Part shown: piece after piece, positions 6,556 through 45,539 of the stretch
Layout: each line of letters opens with the position of its first letter
Numbering within the stretch: position 1 is the first letter of the stretch
Assembly (NCBI GenBank): GCA_030639305.1
Contig: DAOWCY010000006.1
Coordinates: 16,563-80,562, forward strand
Length of the DNA stretch: 64,000 bases
Direction of reading: 5' to 3'
From: Candidatus Aminicenantes bacterium
Lineage (GTDB): Bacteria; Acidobacteriota; Aminicenantia; UBA2199
Translations under genes and position numbers: made by a program
The notes under the pieces: model-generated
Databases searched by the model: none
Told to the model about the DNA's origin: nothing
What the model saw: the letters and a program-made list of their open reading frames with translations, nothing else

Positions 6556-6951
6556 TTAGTTCTCCTCCTGCTCCAGGAACGATTTTAACCACGCGGTCGC
6601 TTTTTCTTCCGAATTAAACATCCTGGAAGGGAACCGGGGCTTGTTGATGGCCATGAAAAAATTCCCGATCACCTTGCTTACCGGCGAAGTCACCAGGAGA
6701 GCCAGGACTGTGTGAATCTTTTCCGCCTCCTCGCCGGATAAATGCCTCCTGGCGTCCCGGTCTATGGACTTAATAGTCCTGATATCGGTCAGCACCGGGG
6801 TTTTTTTGCCCCCGGTAAGTTTGGCATGGATTTTGAGATGTTCCCTGGCTAATCCGAGATCCATTTCGGCGTTGGGGTGGGTCTCGGAATGAAAAATACC
6901 GTCTTCCAACCACAGTTTGGCTCCTTTTGTTTCGATTACTTCGCTCTTCAT
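6556..6951 (-). CDS. STAS/SpoIIAA-like domain protein, paralog 4. The track start at 6975 adds MPKEEEKE; MKSEV at 6951 matches the paralogs and follows a GAGGAGG Shine-Dalgarno.
   Basis: MKSEVIETKGAKLWL...TSPVSKVIGNFFMAINKPRFPSRMFNSEEKATAWLKSF. Confidence 0.6.
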   Translation of the reverse strand: MKSEVIETKGAKLWLEDGIFHSETHPNAEMDLGLAREHLKIHAKLTGGKKTPVLTDIRTIKSIDRDARRHLSGEEAEKIHTVLALLVTSPVSKVIGNFFMAINKPRFPSRMFNSEEKATAWLKSFLEQEEN

Positions 6952-7185
6952 TTCTTTTTCCTCCTCTTTCGGCATAAATGCCGGACCGCATAAGAGAGCC
7001 GCTTAAGACTCTACATGGCACTCCTACCTCTACTGTTGGGTGAAAATCCTGTTCCGGTGTAACGATAATTTAGCGTTTTGGAGTGTACGACTCTATTTTA
7101 AAAGAAATCTTTCAAGAATTCAATATGTTTGTTGATTTTTTTTTCATAAACCGGTTTTTCTATCGCTTTTCCCCAAATTTGAATC

Positions 7186-7214
7186 TTGCATTTTTGAAAA
7201 AAATAAGGGATAAT
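7186..7214 (+). promoter_or_regulatory. Sigma70-like promoter: TTGCAT, 17 nt spacer, GATAAT. A GGAGG Shine-Dalgarno follows 6 nt before ATG 7231.
   Basis: Read directly: cTTGCATttttgaaaaaaataaggGATAATattagcGGAGGttattATG. Confidence 0.5.
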
Positions 7215-7230
7215 ATTAGCGGAGGTTATT

Positions 7231-8046
7231 ATGGAGTGTCCATATTGTCATAAAATTGCTCCGGACACTAATTATAAGTGTCCACACTGCCGCCAGGTTA
7301 TAAAAGATGGCCTCGATCCCCTCAGCCGGTACGAAAAACAAAAACAGGCTGAAAAAAACGATCATCCGCCAACCACAGGGTCACGACCTACAGGGAAACC
7401 CACGGCGGTGAAAACATACTATTTCGTTTTAGCTGCTGTTATTGTCGGTCTGGCTTTGATCGGTTTTTACATGTTACAGCAGAGTCAGGCGCCCAAAACC
7501 GGTAAAAGCAGCGATTCTTCCAGCTACTCACAGCAGTCCCAAAGCGGCGATGATTCTTATGGGAGCGGCACAGAGAGCGGGGAAACCGGCAGGAACTCCG
7601 GGGACAGCGAAGAACCGGAATGGTATGAACCGGAAGAACAACCCGGCGACAAGCCTGTAAGCTATGGATCGAAACCAAGTCGATCATATGAAGAACCGCC
7701 CCGGGTCGCTTATGAACCCGGACAGGAAGTAGAGATCGAAGACCTAATGCAAAGCGGTAAAATCAACATCTTTGATTTTTACAGTGAATTTTGTCCTCCA
7801 TGCCGGCGAATTTCTCCCAAGCTTGAACAGTTAGACCGGCGCAGGGACGACGTCGTGGTGATAAAGATCGATATCAACCGGGAAAATACCCGCGGCATCG
7901 ATTGGAAATCGCCGCTGGCCCGGCAGTATAATCTTTCCAGTATTCCCCATTTTATTATCTACGATGCCGAAGGCCGGCGCACCCACGAAGGCAACTCCGC
8001 TGCTACGCAGGTTATGCAAATGCTCAACAAGGAAGGGATTCGTTGA
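7231..8046 (+). CDS. Membrane-anchored thioredoxin-like protein: N-terminal zinc ribbon, one TM helix, Ser/Gly/Glu-rich linker, C-terminal thioredoxin fold with CPPC
   Basis: CPYCHK...CPHC zinc ribbon. Hydrophobic YYFVLAAVIVGLALIGFYML. Low-complexity SSDSSSYSQQSQSGDDSYGSGTESGETG. Thioredoxin-like FDFYSEFCPPCRRISPKL...IPHFIIYD. Confidence 0.6.
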   Translation: MECPYCHKIAPDTNYKCPHCRQVIKDGLDPLSRYEKQKQAEKNDHPPTTGSRPTGKPTAVKTYYFVLAAVIVGLALIGFYMLQQSQAPKTGKSSDSSSYSQQSQSGDDSYGSGTESGETGRNSGDSEEPEWYEPEEQPGDKPVSYGSKPSRSYEEPPRVAYEPGQEVEIEDLMQSGKINIFDFYSEFCPPCRRISPKLEQLDRRRDDVVVIKIDINRENTRGIDWKSPLARQYNLSSIPHFIIYDAEGRRTHEGNSAATQVMQMLNKEGIR

Positions 8047-19307: not shown

Positions 19308-20177
19308 ATGACATCAACAAAAAAACTCTCTCACGGGAAAACTTTAAGTTTATTACTGGTGTTTTCCTTAGTATTAAGTGTTAGCCTCTCGGCCACTCCA
19401 CCACCGGTGCCGAAATTCGCTGTGGTGGTAGTAGGCGCCAATCAAGCCGACCCGGAAAGTATGCATATCGCTTTCGGGAATACCGGCGACCGGGTGTACA
19501 GCACCCTGAAAACAAAAGGCTTTACGGACGCCAACATTCTCTATTTAAGCTGGGATTTCGGCCCTAACCCGAATGTGGACGGTCTCTCCACGAAAGCCAA
19601 TATCTCCTGGGGTTTGCAAACCTGGCTGCGTAACAACCTCAACAACGGCCTGATGGACGAAACCGTGGTGATCTATTTTATCGATCACGGCGGTGTGAAT
19701 GTGGGCGGTTATTTTTTCGTACCCTTTGATAACCCCACCAATTTCGTTTATGATTGGGAACTCAGCAATTGGGTCAACATAGGGCTGTCCGAATGGGTTA
19801 TCACCACGAATTACAATGTTTGCAACATCGTTATCGAAACCTGTTTCAGCGGCAACCTCATCGGTTGGACCCCCACCGGCCTCAGCGGTCCGAACCGGAT
19901 CGTAGTTACCGCTACGGATACTATGCTGCAAGCCTATTCCTGGTGGATGCCGCCCCAGATATGGTATGACCAGCGCCCGGCAGATTCCAACGGGGAGGCG
20001 ATTTTTTCTTACTACTTCTTGAAGATGATCGGTGCCGGCAGAGATGTGCAGATGGCTTTTAACCGGTCTTTTATCCAGACGGTTAATGAAGTCCTTCGCC
20101 TGGCTTTACTCTCCGGGGGCAATGAGCAGCAGAATCCCATGATCGACAATCAATGTCCAGGTCAACTTTTCTGGTAG
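19308..20177 (+). CDS. Secreted clan-CD cysteine peptidase, legumain (C13)-like
   Basis: Signal peptide KTLSLLLVFSLVLSVSLSA. His-Gly and Cys catalytic dyad context (...VVIYFIDHGG... and ...IVIETCFSGNLIG) resembles the legumain HG / EACxSG arrangement. Confidence 0.5.
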   Translation: MTSTKKLSHGKTLSLLLVFSLVLSVSLSATPPPVPKFAVVVVGANQADPESMHIAFGNTGDRVYSTLKTKGFTDANILYLSWDFGPNPNVDGLSTKANISWGLQTWLRNNLNNGLMDETVVIYFIDHGGVNVGGYFFVPFDNPTNFVYDWELSNWVNIGLSEWVITTNYNVCNIVIETCFSGNLIGWTPTGLSGPNRIVVTATDTMLQAYSWWMPPQIWYDQRPADSNGEAIFSYYFLKMIGAGRDVQMAFNRSFIQTVNEVLRLALLSGGNEQQNPMIDNQCPGQLFW

Positions 20178-26815: not shown

Positions 26816-28174
26816 ATGACTAAAACAAAAAAAATTGCCATTTGTGGAGCCGGCATCATGGGGCTTACGGCCGCCCATGAATTATTAAGGAAGGGCTTCG
26901 ACGTTACTATATTTGAGAAAGACGACCGGGTAGGTGGTATGTCTGCTTCTTTTGATTTCGACGGTTTAAAGATCGAGCGGTACTATCATTTTTTTTGTAA
27001 GCCGGACGCCCCGGTTTTTGAGATGTTGGCGGAGTTCGGTCTTTCCGGGCGATTAAAGTGGGTAGAAACCAAAATGGGTTTTTTTTACCGGGGCGAGCTT
27101 TTTAAATGGGGCAACCCTATTGCTCTTTTACTGTTCCCGCACTTAGGTTTTTTGTCGAAAATTCGTTTCGGCTTACAGGTATTTCTTTCTATCAGGCGGA
27201 AGAACTGGGATAAGTTAGACAGGGTAAGCGCCCTTCGTTGGATTAAAGATTTTACCGGTGAGAAAACCTACGAAGTATTGTGGGAAAGTTTGTTGGATTT
27301 GAAATTTCACCGGTATAAAGACCGATTGTCTGCTGCCTGGGTAGGGCGGCGGTTGAAGCGGGTCGGTTTATCGAGAAAAAATATTTTGACTGAAGAGTTG
27401 GCTTATTTGGAAGGAGGTGTGGAAGTGCTGCTCGATGCCCTAACAGCGCGGATAAAAGAACTGGGCGGCAGGATTTTTTTGAATGCCGAAGTCACCCGGA
27501 TCAGCCGCGGAAAAGAAACCCTCAGTCTAGCTGTAGATGACCGGGAGTTGTCTTTCGATAAGGTTCTTTCTACCATGCCGCTGCCTTATATTCCCCGAAT
27601 GGTTCCCGGGCTGCCCGGCGGGGTGCTGGAGAAGTATAAGCAGTTGGAGAATATCGGCGTCGTTTGTGTGATCTTGAAGTTGACCGGGTCTTTGACGGAG
27701 AATTTCTGGTTAAATATAAGTGACCCGGAGATCGCGCTGCCCGGCATCATCGAATTTTCCAATATTCGTCCTTTGCCTGACAAAGTGGTTTATTTTCCTT
27801 TTTATTTACCCCGCGACCACGGGAATTTTTCCAAATCCGACGATTATTTTCTCGCGGAAGTTAAAGCTTACTGTAAAAAGATCAACCCTAATTTTGAAGA
27901 GAATTGGGTTTTGGCTGCCGGGGTTCACCGTTATGAATATGCCCAGCCCGTGTGTCCGCCCGGATTTTTGGGAATGCTGCCGCCCATCGAAACCGGGTTA
28001 GAGGGTTTTTACGCGGTAGATACTTCTTATTATTATCCTGAAGACCGGTCTATTTCCGAGAGCATCCTGATGGGCAAAGGGGCGGCGAATCTTCTTTTAG
28101 GAGACAAAAAATTGCAGCAAGAGGGGCAAAAAAAATACGTTACACTAATGCGTTTAAAAACCGCGAAGCGCTGA
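26816..28174 (+). CDS. NAD(P)/FAD-dependent oxidoreductase (amine oxidase / phytoene-desaturase-like fold)
   Basis: N-terminal dinucleotide-binding IAICGAGIMGLTAAHELLRKGFDVTIFEKDDRVGG (GxGxxG...E...GG). Confidence 0.7.
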   Translation: MTKTKKIAICGAGIMGLTAAHELLRKGFDVTIFEKDDRVGGMSASFDFDGLKIERYYHFFCKPDAPVFEMLAEFGLSGRLKWVETKMGFFYRGELFKWGNPIALLLFPHLGFLSKIRFGLQVFLSIRRKNWDKLDRVSALRWIKDFTGEKTYEVLWESLLDLKFHRYKDRLSAAWVGRRLKRVGLSRKNILTEELAYLEGGVEVLLDALTARIKELGGRIFLNAEVTRISRGKETLSLAVDDRELSFDKVLSTMPLPYIPRMVPGLPGGVLEKYKQLENIGVVCVILKLTGSLTENFWLNISDPEIALPGIIEFSNIRPLPDKVVYFPFYLPRDHGNFSKSDDYFLAEVKAYCKKINPNFEENWVLAAGVHRYEYAQPVCPPGFLGMLPPIETGLEGFYAVDTSYYYPEDRSISESILMGKGAANLLLGDKKLQQEGQKKYVTLMRLKTAKR

Positions 28175-29321
28175 TCACCCGGATTTCATCACTCATGAAA
28201 TCGACATCCTCTTCCATCACGACCTGGAATAAAAACGGGATATCCATTCGATCCGAAAAATATTTCAAATGTTTGGAGACATTTTTCCCCGACCGTTTTA
28301 CTTCTACGGCAAACCAGGGTTTTTCGCCCACAGTGATAATAAAATCGATTTCCCTGCCTTCCCTGTCCCTGAGAAAATAAACTTTGGTGTTGTATCCTTC
28401 GGTATCGGTCAAAAAATGACAAAACTTCAACAGGTGAGAAGCCACGATATTTTCAAGTTTTGCTCCTATATTGTCTTCGATTTGGGACCAGTCCCAGAGG
28501 AATAGTTTCGGCATTTTTTTTAGTGATTTTACCGGGCTGCGGGAAAATGGGTAAACCCGGAAATGGTAATAGAAATTTTCGAGGATTTCCAACCAGCGCT
28601 GTATGGTTTTATGGGAGACAGACAAATCCTCCGTCAGAGAATTCACGGACAGTAGTGACGCCACCTTACCGGGCAGGTTGTCTGCCAGTACCTGGAGGCT
28701 CGACAATTCGCTAATAGTTTCTAAGTCGTTAATATCTTCCCGGGTAATACGTTCCAGGCGCATATGGTGCCATCTTCTCAGGGTCCGTTCGTTTTGTTTC
28801 AACAGCGGCTCAGGAAATCCGCCAAATTTTAGCAGGAGATTAAAAAATTCTATCCCGCTTTTAGCAGTAGGTGGAATCTCCAGTTCCTTCATGACCTGGA
28901 TTTTTTTTTTTGAATTCATAAGTTCAGCGAGCGAAAAAGGATGCAGCCTGTAATAATAATCTCTACCCATCAAAGAGTCTCCGCCTTTGCGGAAAACATT
29001 TAGCCGGGCGCTGCCGGTAACCAATAGCTTAAACCGGTCTTTTTTTTTATCGAAAATACCTTTGATGAAGTTTTTCCAGTGTTTGTATTTGTGAATTTCG
29101 TCGAGAATGATCAATTGGCTGTCCGGGCTGAAGCGAAGATCTAATATTTTTTTCCTGTCTTCGCCGAAGTCCCAGTTCAGATAGGTAATATTAGAGAATT
29201 TTTTCCCGACGATATCCCGGGCCAGGGTGGTTTTTCCCACTTGCCGGGGACCGCTCATCAGTACCATTTTTTCTTCCAGGTCTTCGAACACATAATTGAA
29301 AAGGTATCTATTTTCTATCAT
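28140..29321 (-). CDS. AAA-family ATPase with C-terminal DUF4143 (archaeal-ATPase-like, PF13173-type)
   Basis: Walker A MSGPRQVGKTTLARDI. Walker B LIILDEIH. C-terminal region with ...HLLKF...EGREIDFII, as in DUF4143. Confidence 0.7.
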   Translation of the reverse strand: MIENRYLFNYVFEDLEEKMVLMSGPRQVGKTTLARDIVGKKFSNITYLNWDFGEDRKKILDLRFSPDSQLIILDEIHKYKHWKNFIKGIFDKKKDRFKLLVTGSARLNVFRKGGDSLMGRDYYYRLHPFSLAELMNSKKKIQVMKELEIPPTAKSGIEFFNLLLKFGGFPEPLLKQNERTLRRWHHMRLERITREDINDLETISELSSLQVLADNLPGKVASLLSVNSLTEDLSVSHKTIQRWLEILENFYYHFRVYPFSRSPVKSLKKMPKLFLWDWSQIEDNIGAKLENIVASHLLKFCHFLTDTEGYNTKVYFLRDREGREIDFIITVGEKPWFAVEVKRSGKNVSKHLKYFSDRMDIPFLFQVVMEEDVDFMSDEIRVISASRFLNALV

Positions 29322-29499
29322 ATTTGCTCCTTAAAAAAAACACGAACAAATTATACCACACTCCAAAAAAATGGCAAACTTTTTGGAGTCCTCTCCAAAA
29401 AAGTCGTGTTTTGGGGGATTTTTTTTGAACTGTTGGCAGGGTGATTTTTTTCTCCTTTTGCCGGTCGCTGCAGCCCTTGAGAAAAATATTTGTTTATTG

Positions 29500-29528
29500 T
29501 TGATAAATTTGGCAAATGTGATTATAAT
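29500..29528 (+). promoter_or_regulatory. Sigma70-like promoter: TTGATA, 17 nt spacer, TATAAT, upstream of the STAND NTPase gene
   Basis: gTTGATAaatttggcaaatgtgatTATAATagattataacgaattgccgcagtaaaggccGGAGGTGatcttttATG. Confidence 0.5.
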
Positions 29529-29572
29529 AGATTATAACGAATTGCCGCAGTAAAGGCCGGAGGTGATCTTTT

Positions 29573-32338
29573 ATGAAGAAAAAAGTATTTGTAGGCCGCG
29601 AGAATGAGCTGGAACAATTTAGACAGGCCATGCGCAAGCTGCTGGAAGAGCAGCAGAAAGAAGAGAACTGGGGCAATACTTTCCTGGTTTGCGGAGTGGG
29701 CGGGATGGGCAAAACCACCCTGTGCGAAAAATTTAAAGAAATTACGGGAAACGAATTCCCCGGTGTGGGGATCATCAGTATAGATTGGGACTTGTGCAAA
29801 AGCCGGGGTTCTACTTTTACGCCCGAAGAGTTGTTGGACACGGTTGCGCGTGAGTTTAAAGGGTCTTTTCCTAAAGAGATGAAGCCCTACCTAAATGCCA
29901 AAAAAGACATCCGCAAAGTACAGGAACAGGTCGAAAAACTGCTGGAACAAAAGCGGCAGGCTTTAGGCCCGGTTTCCGAACTGGCCGGTGAAGCAGCGGC
30001 AGTTACAAGCGGCATTCCAATTTTAGGCACGGTGGTTAAGACAAGTTTGGGATTGATCGGAAAAGCCTTGAGCAAATCAAATGTGAAGTTTTTGAAAGAG
30101 AGAGCCGGGGTGAGCGAAGAGAAGCTGCTGCTCTACACCGACCCGCATATCGCCCTGGCTCGCCACCTGCGGGATTGTATCCACGCTGTTACGGGCAATA
30201 AAAAGAAAAACAAAATACTGCTGCTTTTCGATACTTGCGAATTAATCGTTTACGTGGAACAATGGTTTACCGACCATTTCCTGATACCGCTAATGAATGG
30301 GAACCGTGATGTCGCACTGGTTTTTTCAGGGCGCTATTATCCTTATGCCCAGCGCACGGTAGTGATAGACGGCAGGGCCATCGACATTCGCGGCATGGCC
30401 GACCGCATGTCTTTTCCGCCGCAGGTGATCGACATGAAGCTGTTCAGCCGCCCCGATATAGAAAAATACCTGCGGGAATCGGGCTGTGACGGCGGCGAAG
30501 ACAAGGTGGCCGACTTTGTGCAGTCATATTCCCGCGGAGTGCCTTTTGCGGTTGACCTGCTGACAAATGCTTTGCAGAGAATCGGCCCGGATTGCATCTT
30601 GCAAGATTTTGCCGGGGCGGATTTTGAAAAACAATTAAAAGAAGCCGAATCCAATGAAGAAGTGATTCGCTGCGTATCGCGGCGTTTCCTGAAATACTGC
30701 CTGGATGAAAGGGGGAACAGTTTAGACCGGCAGCGGATTTTTAGCATCGCGGTTTTGGGCGATACCGGCCCGGAGATTTTAAGAGAGGTCTGGCAGGTAG
30801 GGAATAGCGGTGCAGTCCTGGAAGAACTGCAAGCCAAATACGCGCTTTTTACCGGCAGAGGCAAGCTGCACGATGTGGTGAAAGATTTCCTGGTGGATCA
30901 TATATTGGAAGATGACAGCCTGCGTTTGGAGACTGCCGCGCCTTTTGCTCAAAAAGCGCTGCCCCTGTACGAGAAAAAGTATGCAGCGGAATGTGAAGAG
31001 GAACCGGTGTGGGCAGAGCGGTTCCGCGAAGATATCTGGAAAGAGGCGCTGCTGCATTTGATGAACGTTAAGACCTGGATCGACCCCAATGAAGCGGTTG
31101 ATTTTTTTATCCGGCGCGGCATCGAGTTGTTTCTTTTTAGTCCTGCCTTAGTGCGGCAGATGAAGGGGCTTTTGGACAGGTTTTTAAAATTGGAAAATGT
31201 GGTGCGGCGCAGGAAACGGCGCAAAATAAACGCCCTGATTGAGGCTTTGGATGCTTTTAGTTGGACTATATGGTCCGATAAAAAGCGAGAAGGATTAACC
31301 CAAGTGCTTTCTTTTTGCCGGGAGGCCTTAGATGACTGGGAGTTGGACCCGGTTCATCAGGCAGTTATCCAGCTTCTCAAAGGCCGCACTGAGTACCTGC
31401 AAAAGAATTACGACGCCGCTTTAAAAACCCTGTTAGAACAGGTAGACGATACCCGGTTCGACAAAAGTTTGAAAGACAGGTTAGCCGAAGCCTTAGATGA
31501 AGTGGGGACAAAATTCTGTTTAGATGAGAGCAATAGTTTTTTCTTTTCCGGGAAAGCGTTACAGGCTTTCGAGAAGGTGGTGCAATTGAACGACAAAAAA
31601 TCATCCTATTTGTACCACCTGGGTGCGATGATCTATTTAAGCGGCAATCCCCAAGAAGCCCTGTCTTATTACTTGAAAGCGATAGAATTAGACCCAAAGA
31701 ATAAATATATGATAAATGGTTTAGGCATTGTTTACCGGCAATTAGCCGATTACGACAAAGCCATCGAAATGTATGAAAAAGCGATAGCCCTGGATGCAAA
31801 ATATGCTTCGCCTTACAATGGCTTAGGTGCGGTTTATCAGACCTTTGGAGAATACGATAAAGCCATCGCGATGTATGAAAAAGCGATAGACCTGGATGAA
31901 AAATATATTCCCCCAATCAATGGCCTGGGATACCTGTATCTTTGCCGGGGGCATTACCGGGAGGCCATTCCCTACCTGCTAAAAAGTATAGAAATCGAAC
32001 CGCATATTGTTACCTACGTGAATTTAGGCATTGCCTATTATAGTCTGGATGAAGTAAAAAAGGGCAAAGATTGTTTTGAAAAAGGGCTGTCCTGTAAGCA
32101 TAAGGGCGAGAATCTTTACGATCGCTTGAACGAAGTAACCGCACTTTTAGGTTCAGAAAAAAAAGATGAAGCGTTAAGTCTGCTGGGAAAGATCGCCGAG
32201 AAACCTCTGCCGGGAGGTCTTTTGAAAGACTTTTTTACAGATTGGAATATCCTCGCCTCCGCGCCCCACCCGCCCCCGGGCAGCGCCGATTTTATTACAC
32301 AAGCGCGGCACATGTTGAAATATGAGGAAAAGGATTAA
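29573..32338 (+). CDS. STAND-class P-loop NTPase (NB-ARC-like) with C-terminal TPR repeat array
   Basis: Walker A LVCGVGGMGKTTLCEKF. Walker B KILLLFDTCE. C-terminal tandem TPRs (AIELDPKNKYMINGLGIVYRQLADYDKAIEMYEKAIALDAKYASPYNGLGAVYQTFGEYDKAIAMYEKAIDLDEKY...). No recognisable N-terminal effector domain. Confidence 0.7.
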   Translation: MKKKVFVGRENELEQFRQAMRKLLEEQQKEENWGNTFLVCGVGGMGKTTLCEKFKEITGNEFPGVGIISIDWDLCKSRGSTFTPEELLDTVAREFKGSFPKEMKPYLNAKKDIRKVQEQVEKLLEQKRQALGPVSELAGEAAAVTSGIPILGTVVKTSLGLIGKALSKSNVKFLKERAGVSEEKLLLYTDPHIALARHLRDCIHAVTGNKKKNKILLLFDTCELIVYVEQWFTDHFLIPLMNGNRDVALVFSGRYYPYAQRTVVIDGRAIDIRGMADRMSFPPQVIDMKLFSRPDIEKYLRESGCDGGEDKVADFVQSYSRGVPFAVDLLTNALQRIGPDCILQDFAGADFEKQLKEAESNEEVIRCVSRRFLKYCLDERGNSLDRQRIFSIAVLGDTGPEILREVWQVGNSGAVLEELQAKYALFTGRGKLHDVVKDFLVDHILEDDSLRLETAAPFAQKALPLYEKKYAAECEEEPVWAERFREDIWKEALLHLMNVKTWIDPNEAVDFFIRRGIELFLFSPALVRQMKGLLDRFLKLENVVRRRKRRKINALIEALDAFSWTIWSDKKREGLTQVLSFCREALDDWELDPVHQAVIQLLKGRTEYLQKNYDAALKTLLEQVDDTRFDKSLKDRLAEALDEVGTKFCLDESNSFFFSGKALQAFEKVVQLNDKKSSYLYHLGAMIYLSGNPQEALSYYLKAIELDPKNKYMINGLGIVYRQLADYDKAIEMYEKAIALDAKYASPYNGLGAVYQTFGEYDKAIAMYEKAIDLDEKYIPPINGLGYLYLCRGHYREAIPYLLKSIEIEPHIVTYVNLGIAYYSLDEVKKGKDCFEKGLSCKHKGENLYDRLNEVTALLGSEKKDEALSLLGKIAEKPLPGGLLKDFFTDWNILASAPHPPPGSADFITQARHMLKYEEKD

Positions 32339-32436
32339 TTTTTATTTTTTTGTTGAAATCGCAACCTTTTTCTAATAAAATATAGTTGAGAGCAAGACGA
32401 AACTTGTTCTCGAAAGATAGATTACGGAGTCAAACT

Positions 32437-32709
32437 ATGGCTACATTAAACGAAACACTAAGAACGCTGCCGGAAAACGCCAAGCAGGAGGTGATCGATT
32501 TCGCGGAATTTATAGCGCAAAAGTACCGGAAAAAACAAATAAAAACCGCTGCTTCCACCAAAAGGGTATTAAGATTTGCCGGGGTCTGGAAAGACATGAA
32601 AGAAAAGGATTATCAAGGCTTAATAGATGATGTCTACGCCAGACGGGAAAAAGCCTTCTCACAAAGACGTAACACATTTCTCAAGAATCAAAGAAATCGA
32701 AATTTTTAA
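32437..32709 (+). CDS. DUF2281-like small protein (putative antitoxin-type)
   Basis: MATLNETLRTLPENAKQEVIDFAEFIAQKY... resembles the DUF2281 LPeevkqEVlDFveFL motif. Start set at 32437 after a GGAG Shine-Dalgarno; the track start at 32386 is less likely. Confidence 0.4.
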   Translation: MATLNETLRTLPENAKQEVIDFAEFIAQKYRKKQIKTAASTKRVLRFAGVWKDMKEKDYQGLIDDVYARREKAFSQRRNTFLKNQRNRNF

Positions 32710-32740
32710 CTGGAGTCTTTAATATTTAAGGAGAAATTAA

Positions 32741-32947
32741 ATGACCGGTAGAATGCAAGGTCGAAAAATAACCGTGGAATTCGATGTAGGCGAATATAAT
32801 CCCGATATCATAGATTTTCTTACCCTATTGGACATCACGTCAAAAAGTAAAGCAGGCGACCGGGACATAAAAAATCTATCGGATGAGATCGGTAAAAACT
32901 GGTGGGCAGAGAATAAAGAAAAACTGTTAAATGAAAGCCATCATTGA
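32741..32947 (+). CDS. Hypothetical small protein (68 aa)
   Basis: ORF follows the DUF2281-like gene with a GGAG Shine-Dalgarno (aaGGAGaaattaaATG). No recognisable motif. Confidence 0.25.
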   Translation: MTGRMQGRKITVEFDVGEYNPDIIDFLTLLDITSKSKAGDRDIKNLSDEIGKNWWAENKEKLLNESHH

Positions 32948-33404
32948 AAATGAGGAAAAGGGGCCAGGCTAATTTTTTCCTGACTCCAATTTTTTTTCGC
33001 AGGACTGACGAACCCTGATCGTACAGGAAAAGGTTGCCTAATCGTAAAGTTTTGCCATTTCCCGGCAAAAAATTTTTTTTCAAGCCTGGAAACTGTTTGT
33101 TATAGAGCGCTTACAGGGCAAAACAATATAAACGATTATTGATTGACCGGCCAAAATTCCCCTCTTCGAGAGGGGTGGCGCTGAGGGGCTTTTTTGCTTT
33201 TTGCCCCGAAGCGACGGGGTGTGTTAGCTCGGTGAATAGCACGTTCGACAATCTTATAATTTTTTCCCAAAGACGTAAAACATGAAAAAGTATTAATGCT
33301 GTAACCGGAAAAGAAAAATCACAATTTTAAGCTCAATATCATCTAAAAATTGAGCGTTTTCTTCTAAATACTGCGTGATGGTTCCAAATATTGGAAGATA
33401 AAGC

Positions 33405-33680
33405 GCTCTTGCCTCCGGCGGCCCCTGCCGGGGAGGCCAAACTTTTAAAAAAGTTTGATCAAAACTTTTTATAATTTAAAATCAAAAGCGCTCACACGCT
33501 GCCTCTTGCGGCGAAGCCGCTTATACCCTGCCCACGTGGTGGGGTGCCTCCGGCGGCCCTGCCGGGGGCCAAACTTTTGAAAAAGTTTGATCAAAACTTT
33601 TGTTTATTTAGAAGCAAAAGCGCTCACACGCTGCGAAGCGGCTTATCGCCTCCCCGTGCGCACGGGGTTAAAATCCAAAG
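33405..33680. repeat. Two tandem copies of the modular repeat element (orientation 1)
   Basis: GCCTCCGGCGGCCC.TGCCGGGG.GGCCAAACTTTT.AAAAAGTTTGATCAAAACTTTT...AAAAGCGCTCACACGCTGC...GCGAAGC(C/G)GCTTAT appears twice in a row, ending in the CCCCGTGCGCACGGGG hairpin. Confidence 0.8.
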
Positions 33681-33689
33681 CGCCCCTTA

Positions 33690-36600
33690 CTACCTCTTAA
33701 ATTTCCAGCGGAAACGCGTCCGCAAACCGCTGTCCTCAAACTGCATCGAAACCCCAAGAAAAGTAAATCCGGCTAATAATCCAAATTCCCGGTCACCCTC
33801 CCTATACGCGGGCTGCCTCTGCTTGAAAACCGTGCCGTAAACAGAACTCCCGATATGGAAGTTTTCCCATACAAAATGACCTTCACCGGGATGCCTGGGC
33901 GTGAAACCGAATAACTGCGCGTGCTTCGCCGCCGCTCCCTCTATAGACGCGCTGCCACTAAGCACAATAGGAAATAAATGACCGGCGCCTTCAAAAGCTT
34001 CAAACAATTTACCGTCCTGGTGGGCTTCAAATAACCCGGGCAATTGCAGTTCACAAGCATCAGGATAAGCCCGCAGAGAAAATCCCTGTAAACTGCCCTG
34101 ATCCACGGCGGTAATCTTCTCCCGGTGCGACCAGGGTATATTCCGTATGAGCAAAAAGCGGTCCTGTAACTCGACGCCGAATCGAAGCTTGATAATCCCG
34201 GCTATGCCAAAAGAAAAAACCCACTGGTCGCGGTTTTCCACCTGGTGCACCCGCACCTGTAATTCGCGCCAGCGATCGCGCTGCCTGAGCGCAGGCACGG
34301 ACCTCTTCAAAAAACTGAGGGTGCGCCCCGGGTCCCGGGTCTCTATAATCAAGGTGCAGGGCCGGGTGAGCACCGAAAGCAAAACCGGCAGCGAAAGCAT
34401 CCCGCTGGCTGACGACCCGCCGAAATTAGCATCGAATATCCCCAACAAGTCGCCACTGCCTAAAGCGATGACCGGGTCGGCGTCATGTACGGTTAGATGC
34501 AGCCCGGGCCCGAAATCCTCGAATATGGCGGGGTGTATAGGCAAATATCGCGATAATAAACTGTAACCGTCTTTGACAATGCCCCGCCAGGCTTCCTCGC
34601 CAAGATTGAGCGAAAGCATAAGCACCGGGTCCCGGGACAAGCGCGGGATATTTAACGGTTCATTGTCCGTTTTGCTTTTTAATGCGCCTTTTAAAGAGTT
34701 ATAAATAGTGTTATCCACCAGCGGCAGGATAAAAATTTCCGCTTCCAAAAAACCGTCCTCAGCTTCATCTAAACGCAGCGCTATAGGATCGAAATACTCC
34801 CGCCAATAACTGGAATACTGATCTACATAACCTTTGTAAGCCTTTTTTTCCTTTTCCGAGACGCGCTGCACCGGAGCTTGCGAGATGGGCTTCATATGAG
34901 CCAGGGTGCCGTAGGTTTTGGAGTGCAAGATGTGATCCTTATCGAAATAATATTCCCCGCCCGGGCTGCCGTCCCGCGCAGATACCGCTGCTTCGCCCTT
35001 TACAGTTGGGGCTGGACGCGCCGCCGCCCTCCTGGAAATATAGCCGTAATCTATCAGGCTTTCGATGGAAAAGGGGGATCCTCTGCCGTCCAATTGGGCC
35101 AGCAGGGAGCGGGAAGTGAGGTATTCCATGTAGGCCCGGGCCCGGATGCGCCGCAGTTGGCCGATCTTAACCGCGGGCCCCACTAACCGGCGAATAAAAG
35201 GATCGGAAAAATAAACGTAACCCCAGGTGGATTTTTTAAGCGGCAGCTTGCTTAACATGTAACGAAATTCATCGCTAAGCCCTAAACTGCCTTTACCGCC
35301 GCTGTTCTTTAACTGTAAAATTTTCGCCACTTCATTTTTATTAGTGCCGATTAGCAGCAGGTCGTCCCAAAAAGACCAGTAGACGTTGGCACCGTTCTTT
35401 GATCGGAAAGCGGTTATGCGTTTTTCGGCCAGCTCTTTTTTACCCAGCAGTTGCAGCAGGGATTTTATCGCGCCGGGTTTGCTCAAACGCGCGGCCACAG
35501 TGACGTCGGTGCCGTCGATAAAAAAAAGATCGGGAAAAATCAGGGCGCACTCTTTAATGATCCCGGCTTCTAATAATGTGCGCAGCAGCTTGCGGTCGAA
35601 TCCTAAACGGGCGGGGTATTTCTTGTCTAATTCGTAATCCACGCCATTGCCGGTAAAGGCGGTGCCCATGCGGTGCAAAAAACCGCAGCCCTGGTCCAAA
35701 AAAGCAAGAATGTCGCGGGGATTGGCTATGTAAACGAAAAAACGGTTTTGGGGCGTCACATCGGCCAGGGGCAGCGTGCCGCTTTTGCCACTGCTTTTTT
35801 TTAACATTTCCCGGAAAGGGTGGGATTCGACTTGTACGCCTGCTATAGATTCCACGTCGATGACGTAGTCCGCGGGCCGCTCCCCCGCGGCGTTTGCCCC
35901 GCCTGCCAGCACCTGCATTTGCAGGGTTTCCCGCACCGCGGCCCGGCCTCCCAATATATCGAAAACCGAGAGACTTTTCCCCCGCCTGTCCCAGCGCTCC
36001 CACGAGAAAAAGAAATCATCGTCGTCTCCTTCTTTTAGGGCTGTCAACCAGGTGGTCAACAGCGGCGATTGAGAAAGCCCGGCATAGGGTAACCAGGTGG
36101 CGAAACGCTGCTTATCAATGTCGATATGTTCACCTTCTTTTGCCTGGACGGCTCTGCGCATATCCCATTTTATTTCCATGGTATCGCCGGAATAGGCATT
36201 CTCCACAGTGAGCAGCAGCGGTTTTCCCGGTTTTGCTTTACATACCGCGGTCAGGGTATAGGAGTGCTTATCCGGTTCTATTACCGGCATCTCTTTTTTT
36301 TTCGGGATAACCGGATGAATGGTCTGTTTATATTTTTTAAGCAGCTTTTTGTCTACCGGCAGGCGCTGGCAGGAGCCGCCGGTATCGAGCACCCAATGTT
36401 TGCCGTCATCCACGTAGGGCCGCAGTTCGAAGGCTAATGTCTCTTTATCTTTTGCCCGGACGAATCTGTCTTTTTCCTGGAAACGGAAATTTGCCCGGGG
36501 AACCAGGAAGATAAAAGGCCCTTTTATATCCTGCCCGGCAGGGGAATCATAAGGCGACCGGGCAAGATTTTTTTGCAGGTATTTATATCTTTTTTCTTCA

Positions 36601-37022
36601 ATAATATCTTGGATGGATGAAGGCCCTGTATTACCGTGTTTCCCGGCGTATTCGGCGCAGGGCCAATAAAGGCGCTGCAAAAAGTGGCGTCCTTTCGTTA
36701 TTTGTTTTTTTTCCGTGATGGCTTTTAAACGTCCGCCCTGCCGGTCATTGTGCAGCGGCGTCGTGGGCTGCAGGTACAGTTCCGTGATATTTTTTTTAGC
36801 TGCGCCGCCGGAATCGACGATCTGCCAATATCCCTGCACCGGGAGCTGCACTTCGCCCCGGTATTTAGTATAGAACGAACCGGGCTGCCGGAAAAAAAGG
36901 CTTTTTTTTACACTCAGCGGGGCCAGTTTATTCAGCGCCCCGTAAGTTAGGACAAAAAATAATCCCAAAACCGCCGCCCACTTGACATATGATGAAATGT
37001 TTTTTATTTTTTTCTTTTCCAT
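33690..37022 (-). CDS. Large secreted hypothetical protein (1110 aa)
   Basis: N-terminal signal/anchor VKWAAVLGLFFVLTYGALN. A long uninterrupted ORF with no motif I can assign. The antisense ORFs 34147.., 34878.., 35386.., 35554.., 35820.., 35894.. and 36126.. are shadows of it. Confidence 0.5.
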   Translation of the reverse strand: MEKKKIKNISSYVKWAAVLGLFFVLTYGALNKLAPLSVKKSLFFRQPGSFYTKYRGEVQLPVQGYWQIVDSGGAAKKNITELYLQPTTPLHNDRQGGRLKAITEKKQITKGRHFLQRLYWPCAEYAGKHGNTGPSSIQDIIEEKRYKYLQKNLARSPYDSPAGQDIKGPFIFLVPRANFRFQEKDRFVRAKDKETLAFELRPYVDDGKHWVLDTGGSCQRLPVDKKLLKKYKQTIHPVIPKKKEMPVIEPDKHSYTLTAVCKAKPGKPLLLTVENAYSGDTMEIKWDMRRAVQAKEGEHIDIDKQRFATWLPYAGLSQSPLLTTWLTALKEGDDDDFFFSWERWDRRGKSLSVFDILGGRAAVRETLQMQVLAGGANAAGERPADYVIDVESIAGVQVESHPFREMLKKSSGKSGTLPLADVTPQNRFFVYIANPRDILAFLDQGCGFLHRMGTAFTGNGVDYELDKKYPARLGFDRKLLRTLLEAGIIKECALIFPDLFFIDGTDVTVAARLSKPGAIKSLLQLLGKKELAEKRITAFRSKNGANVYWSFWDDLLLIGTNKNEVAKILQLKNSGGKGSLGLSDEFRYMLSKLPLKKSTWGYVYFSDPFIRRLVGPAVKIGQLRRIRARAYMEYLTSRSLLAQLDGRGSPFSIESLIDYGYISRRAAARPAPTVKGEAAVSARDGSPGGEYYFDKDHILHSKTYGTLAHMKPISQAPVQRVSEKEKKAYKGYVDQYSSYWREYFDPIALRLDEAEDGFLEAEIFILPLVDNTIYNSLKGALKSKTDNEPLNIPRLSRDPVLMLSLNLGEEAWRGIVKDGYSLLSRYLPIHPAIFEDFGPGLHLTVHDADPVIALGSGDLLGIFDANFGGSSASGMLSLPVLLSVLTRPCTLIIETRDPGRTLSFLKRSVPALRQRDRWRELQVRVHQVENRDQWVFSFGIAGIIKLRFGVELQDRFLLIRNIPWSHREKITAVDQGSLQGFSLRAYPDACELQLPGLFEAHQDGKLFEAFEGAGHLFPIVLSGSASIEGAAAKHAQLFGFTPRHPGEGHFVWENFHIGSSVYGTVFKQRQPAYREGDREFGLLAGFTFLGVSMQFEDSGLRTRFRWKFKR

Positions 37023-42458: not shown

Positions 42459-45400
42459 TCATTGATTATTGTTCAGGCGCTGTAGTTGTGTGTGGGCGTC
42501 TTCTATTTCGATTTGGCCGGGGTCTGCTTTTTCCCACAAACGGAGGAATTCTTTATAATTTTCCAGCGCCTCTTTTTCCCGGCCTAATTCTTGATAGATT
42601 TTCCCCAGGTAATAGAAACTCTTAACATAGACGTCCCCGAAATAGAACCGCCCTAAAGTTAAAGCCGTTATCTTATCGAATTGCCGGCCGGCCTTTTCCC
42701 AGGAACCCTTTTTATAATATGTGAGAGCCAGTTCAAACAAGCACATAGCCTGCTGGTTTGAAAAAAAACTCTCCTTATACTCATGAGGGCCGTATGACAG
42801 CGCCTTTTTCAAATAGGAAACCGCCCGGTCGAAGTTTTTGTTTTCTCTTTCGAGCCTACTTTTAGCAAGATAATAATACCTGTAATCTTTTTTGAAGGGG
42901 CTTTTTTTGCAGTTGCCTTCTAATTCTTTGATCGTTTTTCCGGCTTCCCGGTTTTGCCCTAATTTAAGATACGCCAGGGCTTCGTAGAAAAGTTTTCTGC
43001 CCAGGAAGTAAACGGGCCAAGGCGTTTCATCTAACTTTATATAATTTTTTATGGCCGCCAGCGCCCGGTGCGGTTTACCCAACCTTAAATAGAGATGAAC
43101 CAATTCGTATGCAGTGAGCAGTTTATCTTCTTTGTCTTTCATCCCGGCAAAATTTTCTTTTAGGAGCTTAATGGATTCAGCAAACCTGCCCTGGTGCAGG
43201 TACAGGAGTCTCAGGTTTCTAATTCTATCGGAATAATATCTTTCATCTTTTTCGTCCCGCGGCATATTTTTAAATTCTTGTTCGGCTTTTTCTAAATCTC
43301 CGCGGTATAGATAAATTTTCCCTTTATTGAATTTGAAAATCGCAAGTTTGTTATCTTCCGCGGCGATCTTTTCATTCACTTCCCAGGCCAGGAGGAAAGC
43401 TTTTTTGATAAGATGTATGTCGAATACTAAACCGTACAGCATCGGCCTTATTTTCCCCGGGAAGTTACGGTGGTAATTTTTCTCCACTGCCACTGCTTTA
43501 TCGTACCTCCCTTCCGCCATGTAAGTCCAGGTAAGGAATATATAGGGCATCTGTTCATCGTTGATCCCGTCTGCTGCCCGTTCTAAATATGGAAGCGCAC
43601 GCCGCCAATCTTGCAGTAACGTAAGCAGCCCTCCAAAGTGGGTGTTGGCTTCATAATTACCGGGATATATTTTTAGAAGTTTTTTAAAAGACGAGACCGC
43701 TTTTTTAAAGGTTTCTTCAGCGTTGCTGAAAAAACCTGCTTCCAGCAGTAATCTTTTTTTTGCAGATAAATGCTGCCTGTACTGCATGGCTTTATCGTAA
43801 TATTTTTTCTTTTGGTCCTCTTTTTGCAGTACAGCATATGCCAGGGCTATCTCTTTATAAACTAAGGCATAACCGGGATCCAATTCAATGGCTTCCTTGA
43901 ACAAAAGAATACTTTCTTCATATTTTTCTTCGTTGAATTTCAGTTTGCCCGCACTGTATCGTTCTAATGCCTCGCGAGAAGAAGTGGTAATGGTTTCGAT
44001 GTTTTCGTCCACATCCGCTTCAAGTTTATCATGGGGGATATTGAAGGCTGCTTTGATATCCGGGGTCAAACTGTCTACAATGGAAAATATCGCTTCCTCC
44101 TCCTTCATGTCTTCTGTGAAAGTAGAGAGATTTTCCCCACTCCGCGGATTCAGAATTCTTACGGTGACTCGCATCTTGCCCCCGGAAGTCATATAGCTGC
44201 CGATTAAAAAGTAATCGATATTTTCTTCCGAAGTAATTTTTTTATATACTTCAGTGGTGTAGGGGCTGCCTATTTTATGTTTTATTTTACCGAATATGTC
44301 GAGCAGGCGGTTCTCCGGCAGCACCCAAAAAAATTTGGATTGTTCCAGGTCTGTTGTCAATAGGTGAAAAAAAGTAAACTCCAGGTTGTTTTGGAGTGGT
44401 TGTCCGGTTAGTTCCGTGAAAGGCAGCACTGCCACCCGTATCTTTTTTGGGGGAAAGATTTCTTCTTCTTTTAAAAGTTCCGCTAACTTGAATGCCCCAA
44501 ATAAAGCCAATAGAATAAATATAAATATGGCAGTTAGGCGGGGCAGCCGGTTCTGTTTAAACCGCTGCAGGAAAGGGCCTTTAAAGATGGCGCTGGAATC
44601 CATATCCACCAGCAGGTCTGTAATACATTGGTAGCGGTACTTTCTTTTTTTCTCCAGGCATTTTTTCACGATATTTTTAAGGTAAGTGGGAATTTTTTTC
44701 CCCGGTTTATCAGGGAAAACCGGTTTGGCTCTTAAATGTTTATGCAGGTAGCCGAGATCTGTTTCGGACACAAAGGGATGCTCTCCGGTTATCATTTCGA
44801 ATATGATGATGCCCAACATATAGATGTCCACACGGTTGTCTACTTTCTCTCCCAACCACTGCTCCGGAGCGATATAGCGGGGGGTGCCGACCAACGCCCC
44901 GGAATGAGTGATACCTGTGCTGTCAGCCGATTTTGCCAGGCCGAAATCGGTGATATATACATTGTTTCCCTTATCGATCATAATATTGTTGGGGTTTAAA
45001 TCGCGGTGTACTATTCCCTTCTTATGAGCCGCCAGCAGCCCCATACAGATTTGTTTTAAGATAGCTTTTGTTTTCTCGATAGGCAGCGGGCCTGATTCGG
45101 CCAGCATATCTTTTAGACTTATTCCTTCGATATACTGCATGGAGATAAACTTCACTTCCCCCACTTCGCCGAAATCATAGATGCGCACCACATTTTCGTG
45201 GGCGATTTCCCTGGCCAGCCGTATCTCCTCTTTAAACCGGCTTATCATCCGCTGGTCCGTAAGGAATTCAGGCTTGATGGTTTTTAATGCCGCGGTGGTA
45301 TTTAAAACTTTGTCTTCGGCTTTGTAGACTATCCCCATGCCGCCTCTGCCGAGTTCCTCGATTATCTTATAGCGGCTGCCGAAATCATCGCCCGGGGAAA

Positions 45401-45539
45401 ATATAAAGGGGTTGTCTTCGCTAAAGTCTTTAGTAGTTTCCGCCGGGTGGTTAGCTTTTTTGTCCCGCAGGGAACTGCCGCACTTATGGCAGTAAAAATT
45501 ATCGGCAGGGACTTCGGTTTTACATTTCGGACAATTCAT
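42459..45539 (-). CDS. Serine/threonine protein kinase with N-terminal zinc ribbon, single TM and a long C-terminal TPR-repeat region
   Basis: CPKCKTEV...CHKCG zinc ribbon. Kinase subdomains GRGGMGIVYKA, HRDLNPNNIMI, DFGLAK, GTPRYIAPE. Hydrophobic LTAIFIFILLALFGAF. Many TPR-like helices follow. Confidence 0.8.
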   Translation of the reverse strand: MNCPKCKTEVPADNFYCHKCGSSLRDKKANHPAETTKDFSEDNPFIFSPGDDFGSRYKIIEELGRGGMGIVYKAEDKVLNTTAALKTIKPEFLTDQRMISRFKEEIRLAREIAHENVVRIYDFGEVGEVKFISMQYIEGISLKDMLAESGPLPIEKTKAILKQICMGLLAAHKKGIVHRDLNPNNIMIDKGNNVYITDFGLAKSADSTGITHSGALVGTPRYIAPEQWLGEKVDNRVDIYMLGIIIFEMITGEHPFVSETDLGYLHKHLRAKPVFPDKPGKKIPTYLKNIVKKCLEKKRKYRYQCITDLLVDMDSSAIFKGPFLQRFKQNRLPRLTAIFIFILLALFGAFKLAELLKEEEIFPPKKIRVAVLPFTELTGQPLQNNLEFTFFHLLTTDLEQSKFFWVLPENRLLDIFGKIKHKIGSPYTTEVYKKITSEENIDYFLIGSYMTSGGKMRVTVRILNPRSGENLSTFTEDMKEEEAIFSIVDSLTPDIKAAFNIPHDKLEADVDENIETITTSSREALERYSAGKLKFNEEKYEESILLFKEAIELDPGYALVYKEIALAYAVLQKEDQKKKYYDKAMQYRQHLSAKKRLLLEAGFFSNAEETFKKAVSSFKKLLKIYPGNYEANTHFGGLLTLLQDWRRALPYLERAADGINDEQMPYIFLTWTYMAEGRYDKAVAVEKNYHRNFPGKIRPMLYGLVFDIHLIKKAFLLAWEVNEKIAAEDNKLAIFKFNKGKIYLYRGDLEKAEQEFKNMPRDEKDERYYSDRIRNLRLLYLHQGRFAESIKLLKENFAGMKDKEDKLLTAYELVHLYLRLGKPHRALAAIKNYIKLDETPWPVYFLGRKLFYEALAYLKLGQNREAGKTIKELEGNCKKSPFKKDYRYYYLAKSRLERENKNFDRAVSYLKKALSYGPHEYKESFFSNQQAMCLFELALTYYKKGSWEKAGRQFDKITALTLGRFYFGDVYVKSFYYLGKIYQELGREKEALENYKEFLRLWEKADPGQIEIEDAHTQLQRLNNNQ

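Follow-up and report, generated by a model that had tools for sequence, protein, structure and literature searches.

An effector-less STAND NTPase with a TPR sensor in a Candidatus Aminicenantes island: a probable single-gene unit with a plausible role in defence

The window analysed here, a 64,000-nt stretch of contig DAOWCY010000006.1 from a Candidatus Aminicenantes bacterium (window coordinates count from the first nucleotide of this stretch), encodes a complete signal transduction ATPase with numerous domains (STAND), which possesses a tetratricopeptide repeat (TPR) sensor and neither an effector nor a DNA-binding domain. The protein, 921 residues long, read from an ATG and identical to MCK4764377.1 from a Candidatus Aminicenantes metagenome-assembled genome (MAG), belongs to a rare, patchily distributed family within a larger superfamily, which is marked by an insertion in the nucleotide-binding domain (NBD). 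Taken by themselves, this architecture and the status of the gene as a single-gene unit, with no conserved neighbour in related loci, are very probable. As for function, the protein is described as a self-contained STAND NTPase of the NLR/Avs/MalT type, for which defence or conflict sensing in variable islands is the leading candidate role, held with about even confidence.

Domain architecture, relatives and genomic context

The initial annotation had recognised a STAND NTPase with a P-loop, a helical arm, at least five C-terminal TPRs and essentially no domain before the P-loop. These elements are borne out by an alignment of 20 full-length homologs (36–65% identity), by domain scans and by an AlphaFold2 model built from the homolog alignment (mean predicted local distance difference test score, pLDDT, 83.8), with which a second model of residues 1–655 agrees (pLDDT 81.8). 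In the model, the chain runs from an N-terminal helix through the P-loop domain, the lid (residues 293–346), the winged helix (residues ~380–446), the arm and the TPRs to a C-terminal cap (Table 1). The P-loop domain is five-stranded (residues 36–40, 65–71, 214–220, 247–253, and 284–287), and the stretch before strand β1 has only ~35 residues, which make up the N-terminal STAND helix bearing FVGRENEL. Walker A begins at residue 41, and both GVGGMGKTT and LLLFDTCE are invariant in the 20 homologs at the positions listed in Table 1. Furthermore, almost the whole superfamily retains the P-loop in the form GxGGxGK[ST], and Asp434 of the winged-helix KLHD motif is invariant in a further alignment of eight sequences.

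The P-loop was described earlier as NB-ARC-like. Pfam AAA_16 matches from residue 6 onwards with 34.6 bits (E 3.5e-8), above the 32.6 bits that its cut-off requires; the Pfam NB-ARC model (PF00931) stays below its gathering threshold (18.7–20.4 bits vs. 23.5) and spans residues 19–128 only. A Foldseek search with the model gives weak matches only, and the N-terminal 650 residues have no sequence match in the PDB. By its predicted fold, the protein would belong to the ORC/STAND branch of AAA+, and it is the motifs, rather than the fold scores, that place it in STAND, the motifs themselves being putatively assigned by their pattern and their position in the model.

An unusual feature of the NTPase domain is a helical insertion of ~140 residues, placed after strand β2 and before the Walker B strand. 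In the model, the insertion is all-helical, with a 43-residue stalk helix (residues 104–146), a tip rich in Gly, Ala, Thr, and Val (residues ~130–167, low pLDDT) and return helices, and its conserved residues in the 20-homolog alignment include Trp72, Gly79, Glu86, Leu87, Tyr106, Gly152, and Leu174. In the C-terminal half, five stretches match TPR_1 (E 5e-31, residues ~660–850), corresponding to five to six helix pairs in the model behind the arm. Domain scans and the model reveal no effector or enzymatic domain before or after the STAND core. A DNA-binding domain of the helix-turn-helix (HTH) or LuxR/MalT type, which would have pointed to a transcriptional regulator, was looked for as the initial annotation had proposed; no HTH, GerE or BTAD match appears in the full-length scan or, with the threshold relaxed to E ≤ 10, in the N-terminal 650 residues, and the model shows no HTH fold, its C-terminus being a helical solenoid cap.

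The number of TPRs differs widely between the homologs of the 20-sequence alignment. In loci L001 (10041–10546) and L002 (10138–10555), the TPR-coding region consists of 102-bp tandem units in four to five copies with 90–92% DNA identity, which indicates a recent repeat expansion, whereas the TPR units of the window gene are diverged and form no tandem repeat at the DNA level. Repeats that are both labile and internally conserved are familiar from NLR-like receptors.

A word-indexed search of 5.8 billion proteins yields ~25 clusters with the STAND N-terminal module, all of 800–1100 residues and of the same architecture, from Aminicenantes, Kapabacteria, entries labelled ‘bacterium’ and one Methanophagales (ANME-1) bin. 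Among 185,579 species genomes (one genome per species), there are seven family loci, including one in a Zixibacteria MAG; the closest homolog, in the Aminicenantes locus L018, shares 70% identity. The member labelled Methanophagales archaeon (ANME-1), P0016 (MCK4734298.1), sits on a 3.6-kb contig, and its apparent spread from bacteria to archaea could be a binning artefact, the contig being very short.

The word-indexed search with a profile recovers the same family only; the wider relatives surfaced once 1.84 billion representatives were scanned in full with the profile in HMMER, with clusters defined at 50% identity. This superfamily comprises 868 clusters at E ≤ 1e-3, 110 of them at E ≤ 1e-30. 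Most matches span the whole 650-residue module and begin within ~15 residues of their own N-terminus, and the NTPase-domain insertion is retained throughout, typically with 105–135 residues. An N-terminal extension of at least 80 residues is present in 12 of the 133 distant representatives that include the module start (9%). One of the 12 carries SIR2_2 (E 2.6e-20) and also matches the defence models LmuA, ThsA, and Dsr1, one carries Pfam HD-CE (E 5e-28; nothing relevant to the name ‘HD-CE’ was found in the literature), one has a weak alpha/beta-hydrolase match, and the extensions of the rest contain no recognisable domain. In hhalign, the SIR2- and HD-CE-fused proteins align with the family through the NBD, the insertion, the lid and the winged helix with a probability of 99.8–99.9%, which confirms them as true relatives. 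Both keep the insertion; the Walker B sequence is LDTCEL in the SIR2 fusion and LDTLEV in the HD-CE fusion, and the GxP motif is aligned to GVPLAL and GVPFGV in distant relatives. Since ~90% of the superfamily lacks an N-terminal extension, the effector-less form is the norm and not an exception demanding a local partner.

Neighbourhoods were read for 11 family members, two distant relatives and L018; the window neighbours served as tblastn queries against 23 related loci (~10 independent lineages), and all genes within 6 kb were compared by all-against-all BLASTP. No tblastn match to the DUF4143 ATPase, the DUF2281 protein, the 68-aa open reading frame (ORF), the amine oxidase or the 1110-aa ORF of the window is found in the 23 loci, and L018 carries an MNT/HEPN pair in place of the window neighbours. 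The neighbours shared in the BLASTP comparison are confined to two groups of closely related contigs: L002, L007, and L008 share a PhdYeFM and PIN pair, and L001 and L010 have PrsW and Trypsin_2 in common on the upstream side and an acyltransferase on the downstream side, a case of ordinary lineage synteny. The one further match, a CNNM-type housekeeping gene common to the window and L004, does not adjoin the STAND gene, and the flanking core genes differ in every lineage. The upstream protease genes are common only to related lineages. The PrsW and Trypsin_2 genes (5078–7940 in L010 and their counterparts in L011; 1501–4304 in L001) lie on the strand of the STAND gene, and in L010 and L011 they stop 60 bp short of it. 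In L006, a 337-aa CHAT protein (6887–7900) ends 100 bp before the STAND gene, again on the same strand.

A conserved partner is rejected on the neighbourhood reading, the all-against-all BLASTP and the tblastn searches, none of which yields one; the survey of homolog neighbourhoods that had been proposed for finding partner genes thus ends without any. A conserved association with metabolic operons, named in the initial annotation as evidence for another role, is likewise not found in these neighbourhoods. With no conserved neighbour in the 23 loci, the STAND gene is a solo unit, and it has its own promoter-like site and ribosome-binding site. The near-consensus promoter previously ascribed to it, TTGATA-17-TATAAT, is present, yet the region holds 14 promoter-like sites vs. 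7.5 ± 2.4 in shuffled sequences, so that a consensus match alone is weak evidence, and the site is not conserved in the upstream regions of the STAND homologs. A GGAGG box is kept upstream of the homologs in L001, L010, and L018.

Possible role in defence and its alternatives

On the most likely reading, the window protein is a ligand-gated sensor of the Avs/NLR kind, which oligomerises and whose output does not come from a fused enzyme, and a defence (Avs-like) role, taken alone, is plausible with roughly balanced chances. The NTPase domain is followed by the helical lid, the winged helix and a ~470-residue α-solenoid ending in canonical TPRs. In the proposed mechanism, by analogy with the STAND family, the resting state would be an ADP-bound closed monomer whose nucleotide is held by the GxP motif of the lid and by His433 of KLHD; the trigger would be the binding of a protein or peptide to the TPR solenoid; and ADP would then be exchanged for ATP, with the NTPase domains oligomerising. 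As no enzymatic or DNA-binding domain is fused, the output would have to be non-enzymatic, speculatively either the sequestration of the bound ligand or the recruitment of an unlinked host factor or effector by a surface of the oligomer, e.g., the inserted helical stalk.

The rarity and patchiness of the family, its variable flanks and its labile TPR number are suggestive of conflict-type evolution. In addition, toxin–antitoxin genes lie within ~3 kb in six of the ~10 lineages, and their families vary by lineage (PIN, PhdYeFM, BrnT/CopG, ParE, MNT/HepT, and SymE). In PADLOC, AbiU (E 3e-37) is located 1.2 kb upstream in L012, a ThsB-like TIR (E 2e-50) occurs on a separate STAND protein in L002, L006 has matches to chat (the CHAT protease directly upstream) and PDC-S31, and L010 contains an AriA/GajA-like ATPase fragment. 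Established defence families (AbiU and the ThsB-like TIR-STAND) are found within 5 kb in two of the ~10 lineages, and candidate defence models are nearby in two further lineages (PDC-S01; chat/PDC-S31). The SIR2- and HD-CE-fused relatives, together with the nearby defence and toxin–antitoxin genes, lend the Avs-like reading first put forward in the initial annotation some support.

Several results weigh against a defence role. On the STAND protein itself, PADLOC reports no Avs, NLR or other defence model; its matches there are generic TPR models and, at E 0.011, mad8. A recognised defence effector is present in ~2% of the sampled superfamily members, and any N-terminal extension in ~9%. The survey of Lee et al. 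2026 (PMC13581612), which covers 589 STAND clades, uses an effector criterion of 10%, a null of 0.0153 and a cut-off of 1e-4; with an effector content below 10%, the superfamily would fail that effector criterion. Two of ~10 lineages against the null of 0.0153 gives a binomial P of ~0.01, far from the cut-off of 1e-4 (PMC13581612), in a comparison of two measures that are not strictly comparable, made on a small sample and on single hidden Markov model (HMM) hits rather than full system calls. Moreover, 391 of the 589 clades are not confidently linked to defence (PMC13581612), and the contexts of the distant relatives P0036 and P0064 (loci L023 and L024) contain no recognisable defence genes. 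Relatives of the family are absent from the IMG/VR viral contigs, the STAND protein has no PHROG match, and the plasmid search gives one weak partial match (25% identity over 39% of the query). The proposed output mechanism is itself speculative. A phage or plasmid origin is rejected on the same IMG/VR, PHROG and plasmid results.

The alternative that survives best, possible and clearly less probable than an even chance, would give the protein a housekeeping or regulatory role outside immunity, as an ATP-gated scaffold of TPRs that steers a cellular process such as proteolysis, envelope function or development via protein–protein interaction, like MalT-type regulators without a DNA-binding domain or TPR adaptor proteins. 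Such a scaffold would fit a protein with no effector domain and no defence HMM match, a superfamily that is ~90% effector-less, the finding that most STAND clades are not defence-associated (PMC13581612), and the defence-free contexts of P0036 and P0064. The PrsW and Trypsin_2 genes directly upstream in L010 and L011 and nearby in L001, with the CHAT protease directly upstream in L006, also speak for it; however, the protease neighbours recur only where contigs are closely related and have the downstream acyltransferase in common too, and this is lineage synteny. Vertical inheritance and conserved synteny would be expected of a housekeeping regulator, whereas the family is rare, its phylogenetic distribution is scattered, and each lineage has different flanks. 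Furthermore, its usual neighbours are toxin–antitoxin and defence-type genes, and SIR2- or HD-CE-fused relatives are typical of immune STANDs.

A wider proposal, rather unlikely, is that the superfamily as a whole (~870 clusters) consists of ‘sensor-only’ immune STANDs that defend without a fused or linked enzymatic effector. Its members might act by stoichiometric capture of phage proteins with the labile TPR array, or the inserted stalk might serve as an oligomerisation-dependent output through membrane perturbation or by recruiting a host factor that is not linked to it. On this view, the rare SIR2 and HD-CE fusions would have arisen later, as elaborations of a self-sufficient core.

It is quite unlikely that the effector is built into the insertion, i.e., that the stalk with its Gly/Ala/Thr/Val-rich tip (residues ~130–167) becomes membrane-active or toxic upon oligomerisation, in the manner of the transmembrane insertions of KAP NTPases or of the ZAR1 funnel. 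The position and length of the insertion (~105–135 residues) are conserved in the superfamily, and strongly so in the close family; its tip is rich in small and hydrophobic residues (47–62% Gly, Ala, Ser, Thr, and Val) and of low confidence in the models, and no other candidate output element is present. However, the maximal 19-residue Kyte–Doolittle value is 0.7–1.7 in the close family (1.47 in the window protein) and lower and variable in distant members, mostly under that of a typical transmembrane helix, and the superfamily shows no conservation of the tip sequence. The SIR2- and HD-CE-fused relatives keep the insertion, which argues for a role in the NTPase switch or in oligomerisation and against one as the effector. 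On the hydrophobicity, the lack of tip conservation and the retained insertion of the effector-fused relatives, a membrane-active tip is rated unlikely; a transmembrane insertion of the KAP-NTPase type is rejected, the tip being mostly sub-threshold in hydrophobicity and not conserved in distant members.

Very improbable, and largely refuted by absent co-occurrence, is the two- or three-gene system envisaged in the initial annotation, in which the effector-less STAND signals through the DUF4143/AAA_14 ATPase or the DUF2281 gene and its 68-aa companion: the genes are adjacent, the 251-bp divergent promoter region could allow co-regulation, the ATPase matches PDC-S01 and toxin–antitoxin-like small genes recur beside family members, but none of the three proteins has a homolog in the 23 loci, including the locus of the closest homolog, the recurring toxin–antitoxin genes change family from one lineage to the next, PDC-S01 is by definition a single-gene candidate, and the DUF2281 gene, like the ATPase gene, has its own promoter-like site. 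A multi-gene system with either neighbour is accordingly rejected, there being no co-occurrence across independent lineages.

Should the self-contained STAND sensor indeed act in defence, it would bear on how the many STANDs without a fused effector produce an output, for which the conserved helical insertion would offer a concrete element to probe.

Local features and other elements of the window

Next to the STAND gene lies the DUF4143 ATPase gene, correctly named as an adjacent DUF4143 AAA ATPase gene in the initial annotation and there described as convergent. With the DUF4143 gene on the minus strand (start 29321) and the STAND gene on the plus strand (start 29573), the pair is divergent, separated by a 251-bp intergenic region with one promoter-like site per strand. 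The minus-strand site, TTGCCA-16-TATAAT with a TG extension (29377–29350), is as good as TTGATA-17-TATAAT. Two overlapping inverted repeats with a 9-bp stem (TTTTTGGAGTCCTCTCCAAAAA and others) are situated between both sites at 29380–29417 (+), and could be an operator or mere AT-rich symmetry. At its 3′ end, the DUF4143 gene overlaps by 35 bp with an amine oxidase gene (26816..28174) that converges on it. The ATPase matches seven PADLOC models of PDC-S01 (best E 3.6e-54), a candidate that PADLOC defines as single-gene, and may itself be a single-gene defence candidate.

Downstream of the STAND gene, the DUF2281-like small gene reported previously is confirmed (32437..32709, +; E 6.5e-12); the NCBIfam VapB model gives 38 bits, under its cut-off of 60. 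The 68-aa ORF behind it (32741..32947, +) has no match in Pfam, NCBIfam, PADLOC or PHROGs, and no recognisable toxin (e.g., PIN/VapC) of the kind that defines a type II toxin–antitoxin pair follows the DUF2281 antitoxin. RNA elements and tRNAs were sought at 26–38 kb of the window, and none were found. Rather than being partners of the STAND gene, the DUF4143 ATPase and the DUF2281 gene pair are accessory modules in their own right, which happen to share its island. The practical value of the present analysis is mostly corrective: the locus is not to be annotated as a multi-gene system, the PDC-S01-type DUF4143 ATPase and the VapB-like small gene being independent island cargo and the STAND gene being solo.

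Table 1. Features of the STAND gene, its protein and its surroundings (window coordinates; residue numbers refer to the STAND protein)
Feature	Coordinates	Strand	Basis and remarks
STAND NTPase-TPR protein, 921 aa	29573..32338	+	ORF list, domain scans, alignment, AlphaFold model
FVGRENEL motif, residues 6–13, on the helix before strand β1	29588..29611	+	F6, G8, R9, E12 invariant
Walker A/P-loop GVGGMGKTT, residues 41–49	29693..29719	+	G41, G43–G46, K47 invariant
Helical insertion in NTPase domain, ~140 aa, residues 72–213, between β2 and Walker B strand	29786..30211	+	Model, alignment
Walker B LLLFDTCE, residues 216–223, on model strand 214–220	30218..30241	+	D220, T221, E223 invariant
Sensor-1 motif FSGR, residues 251–254, end of strand 247–253	30323..30334	+	S252, R254 invariant
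GxP motif RGVPFAV, residues 321–327, helical lid; counterpart of NB-ARC GLPLA	30533..30553	+	R321, G322, V323, P324, A326, V327 invariant
KLHD, residues 431–434, winged-helix domain; counterpart of STAND ‘MHD’ His	30863..30874	+	L432, H433 invariant; K431, D434 nearly so
α-Solenoid arm, residues 448–655, TPR-like, under Pfam thresholds	30914..31537	+	
Five to six near-consensus 34-aa TPRs, residues ~660–860	31550..32152	+	Pfam scan, AlphaFold helix pairs
Helical C-terminal cap, conserved (LLASAP-PP-G motif region)	32153..32335	+	Alignment, model; no Pfam match
Sigma-70-like promoter TTGATA-17-TATAAT of STAND gene	29500..29528	+	11/12 consensus positions; consensus match only
Ribosome-binding site GGAGGTG, 7 nt 5′ of ATG	29559..29565	+	Sequence reading
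AAA_14 + DUF4143 ATPase, 393 aa, neighbour outside STAND unit	28140..29321	-	AAA_14 E 9e-27, DUF4143 E 3e-26
DUF2281 (VapB-like antitoxin) gene + 68-aa ORF, neighbours outside STAND unit	32437..32947	+	Domain scan; own promoter-like site 32353–32381
33-nt repeat core	8920, 21657, 26737, 33437, 33569, 37116, 45689, 48594, 53996, 54838, 56722	both	

A dispersed, mostly intergenic repeat with the palindromic core CCAAACTTTTGAAAAAGTTTGATCAAAACTTTT is distributed over the window, its 33-nt core occurring in 11 copies on both strands with at most three mismatches, where none are expected. Two larger units of ~130 nt stand in tandem at 33391–33634, downstream of the small-gene pair. Copies flank the block at 26.7–33.6 kb and also occupy many other intergenic regions of the window; the repeat looks like an element of the REP/MITE type. 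Directly downstream of the island, an orphan ORF of 1110 residues (33690..37022, -) has no Pfam or PHROGs match and no homolog in the related loci. Further away, another large TPR signalling protein of the window (1026 aa; 42459..45539, -) joins a Ser/Thr protein kinase to an extended array of TPRs, with an N-terminal zinc ribbon and a weak match to TCAD9, a ternary-complex-associated domain. A 289-aa protein (19308..20177, +) matches Peptidase_C13 (legumain/caspase-like) at E 1e-5.

Comparison with known systems

Avs1–5 reportedly go back to Gao et al. in 2022. Avs7–21 were added by Lee et al. 2026 (PMC13581612). Like the Avs proteins, the window protein combines in one gene a STAND NTPase with a large C-terminal TPR-like helical sensor, has a scattered phyletic distribution in variable islands, and has profile-level relatives with an N-terminal SIR2 domain, as in Avs5, or an HD-type domain. 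There are differences as well: the window protein has no N-terminal effector, which is needed for cell death in the tested Avs proteins; the PADLOC Avs models do not match it; and its NTPase domain carries the ~140-residue helical insertion. Moreover, the Avs proteins are linked to phage by experiment, whereas the window protein is known here from sequence alone.

Compared with MalT-type regulators, which consist of AAA_16, a SUPR/TPR-like sensor and a LuxR HTH, the window protein shares an AAA_16 domain without an N-terminal domain, followed by an arm and a TPR-like sensor. Unlike them, it has no LuxR/GerE or other HTH, its gene is not associated with a regulated operon, and its repeats are canonical 34-aa TPRs.

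In fungi and multicellular bacteria, NLR-like STAND proteins carry highly conserved TPR, WD40 or ANK repeats, usually together with an N-terminal effector or adaptor domain. The homologs in L001 and L002 resemble them in that their TPR units are near-identical in DNA and vary in number, whereas the window copy has diverged units and no repeat at the DNA level.

With the NB-ARC/AP-ATPase clade (Apaf-1, CED-4, plant NLRs such as ZAR1, and bacterial AfsR-type proteins), the window protein shares the GxGGxGKT P-loop, the hhhhD Walker B, the sensor-1 Arg, the GxP lid motif (GVPFAV vs. GLPLAL) and the winged-helix His (LHD vs. MHD). It differs from this clade in its sub-threshold Pfam NB-ARC score, in a Walker B that reads DTCE rather than DD, in the absence of a CARD, TIR, CC or BTAD N-terminal domain, and in the large insertion between strand 2 and Walker B, a segment that is much shorter in the NB-ARC fold. 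An effector-less AAA_16/TPR STAND is a known, common architecture, of which the window protein is an uncharacterised further member, set apart solely by the conserved NBD insertion. The STAND superfamily as such has recently been catalogued at scale (PMC13581612).

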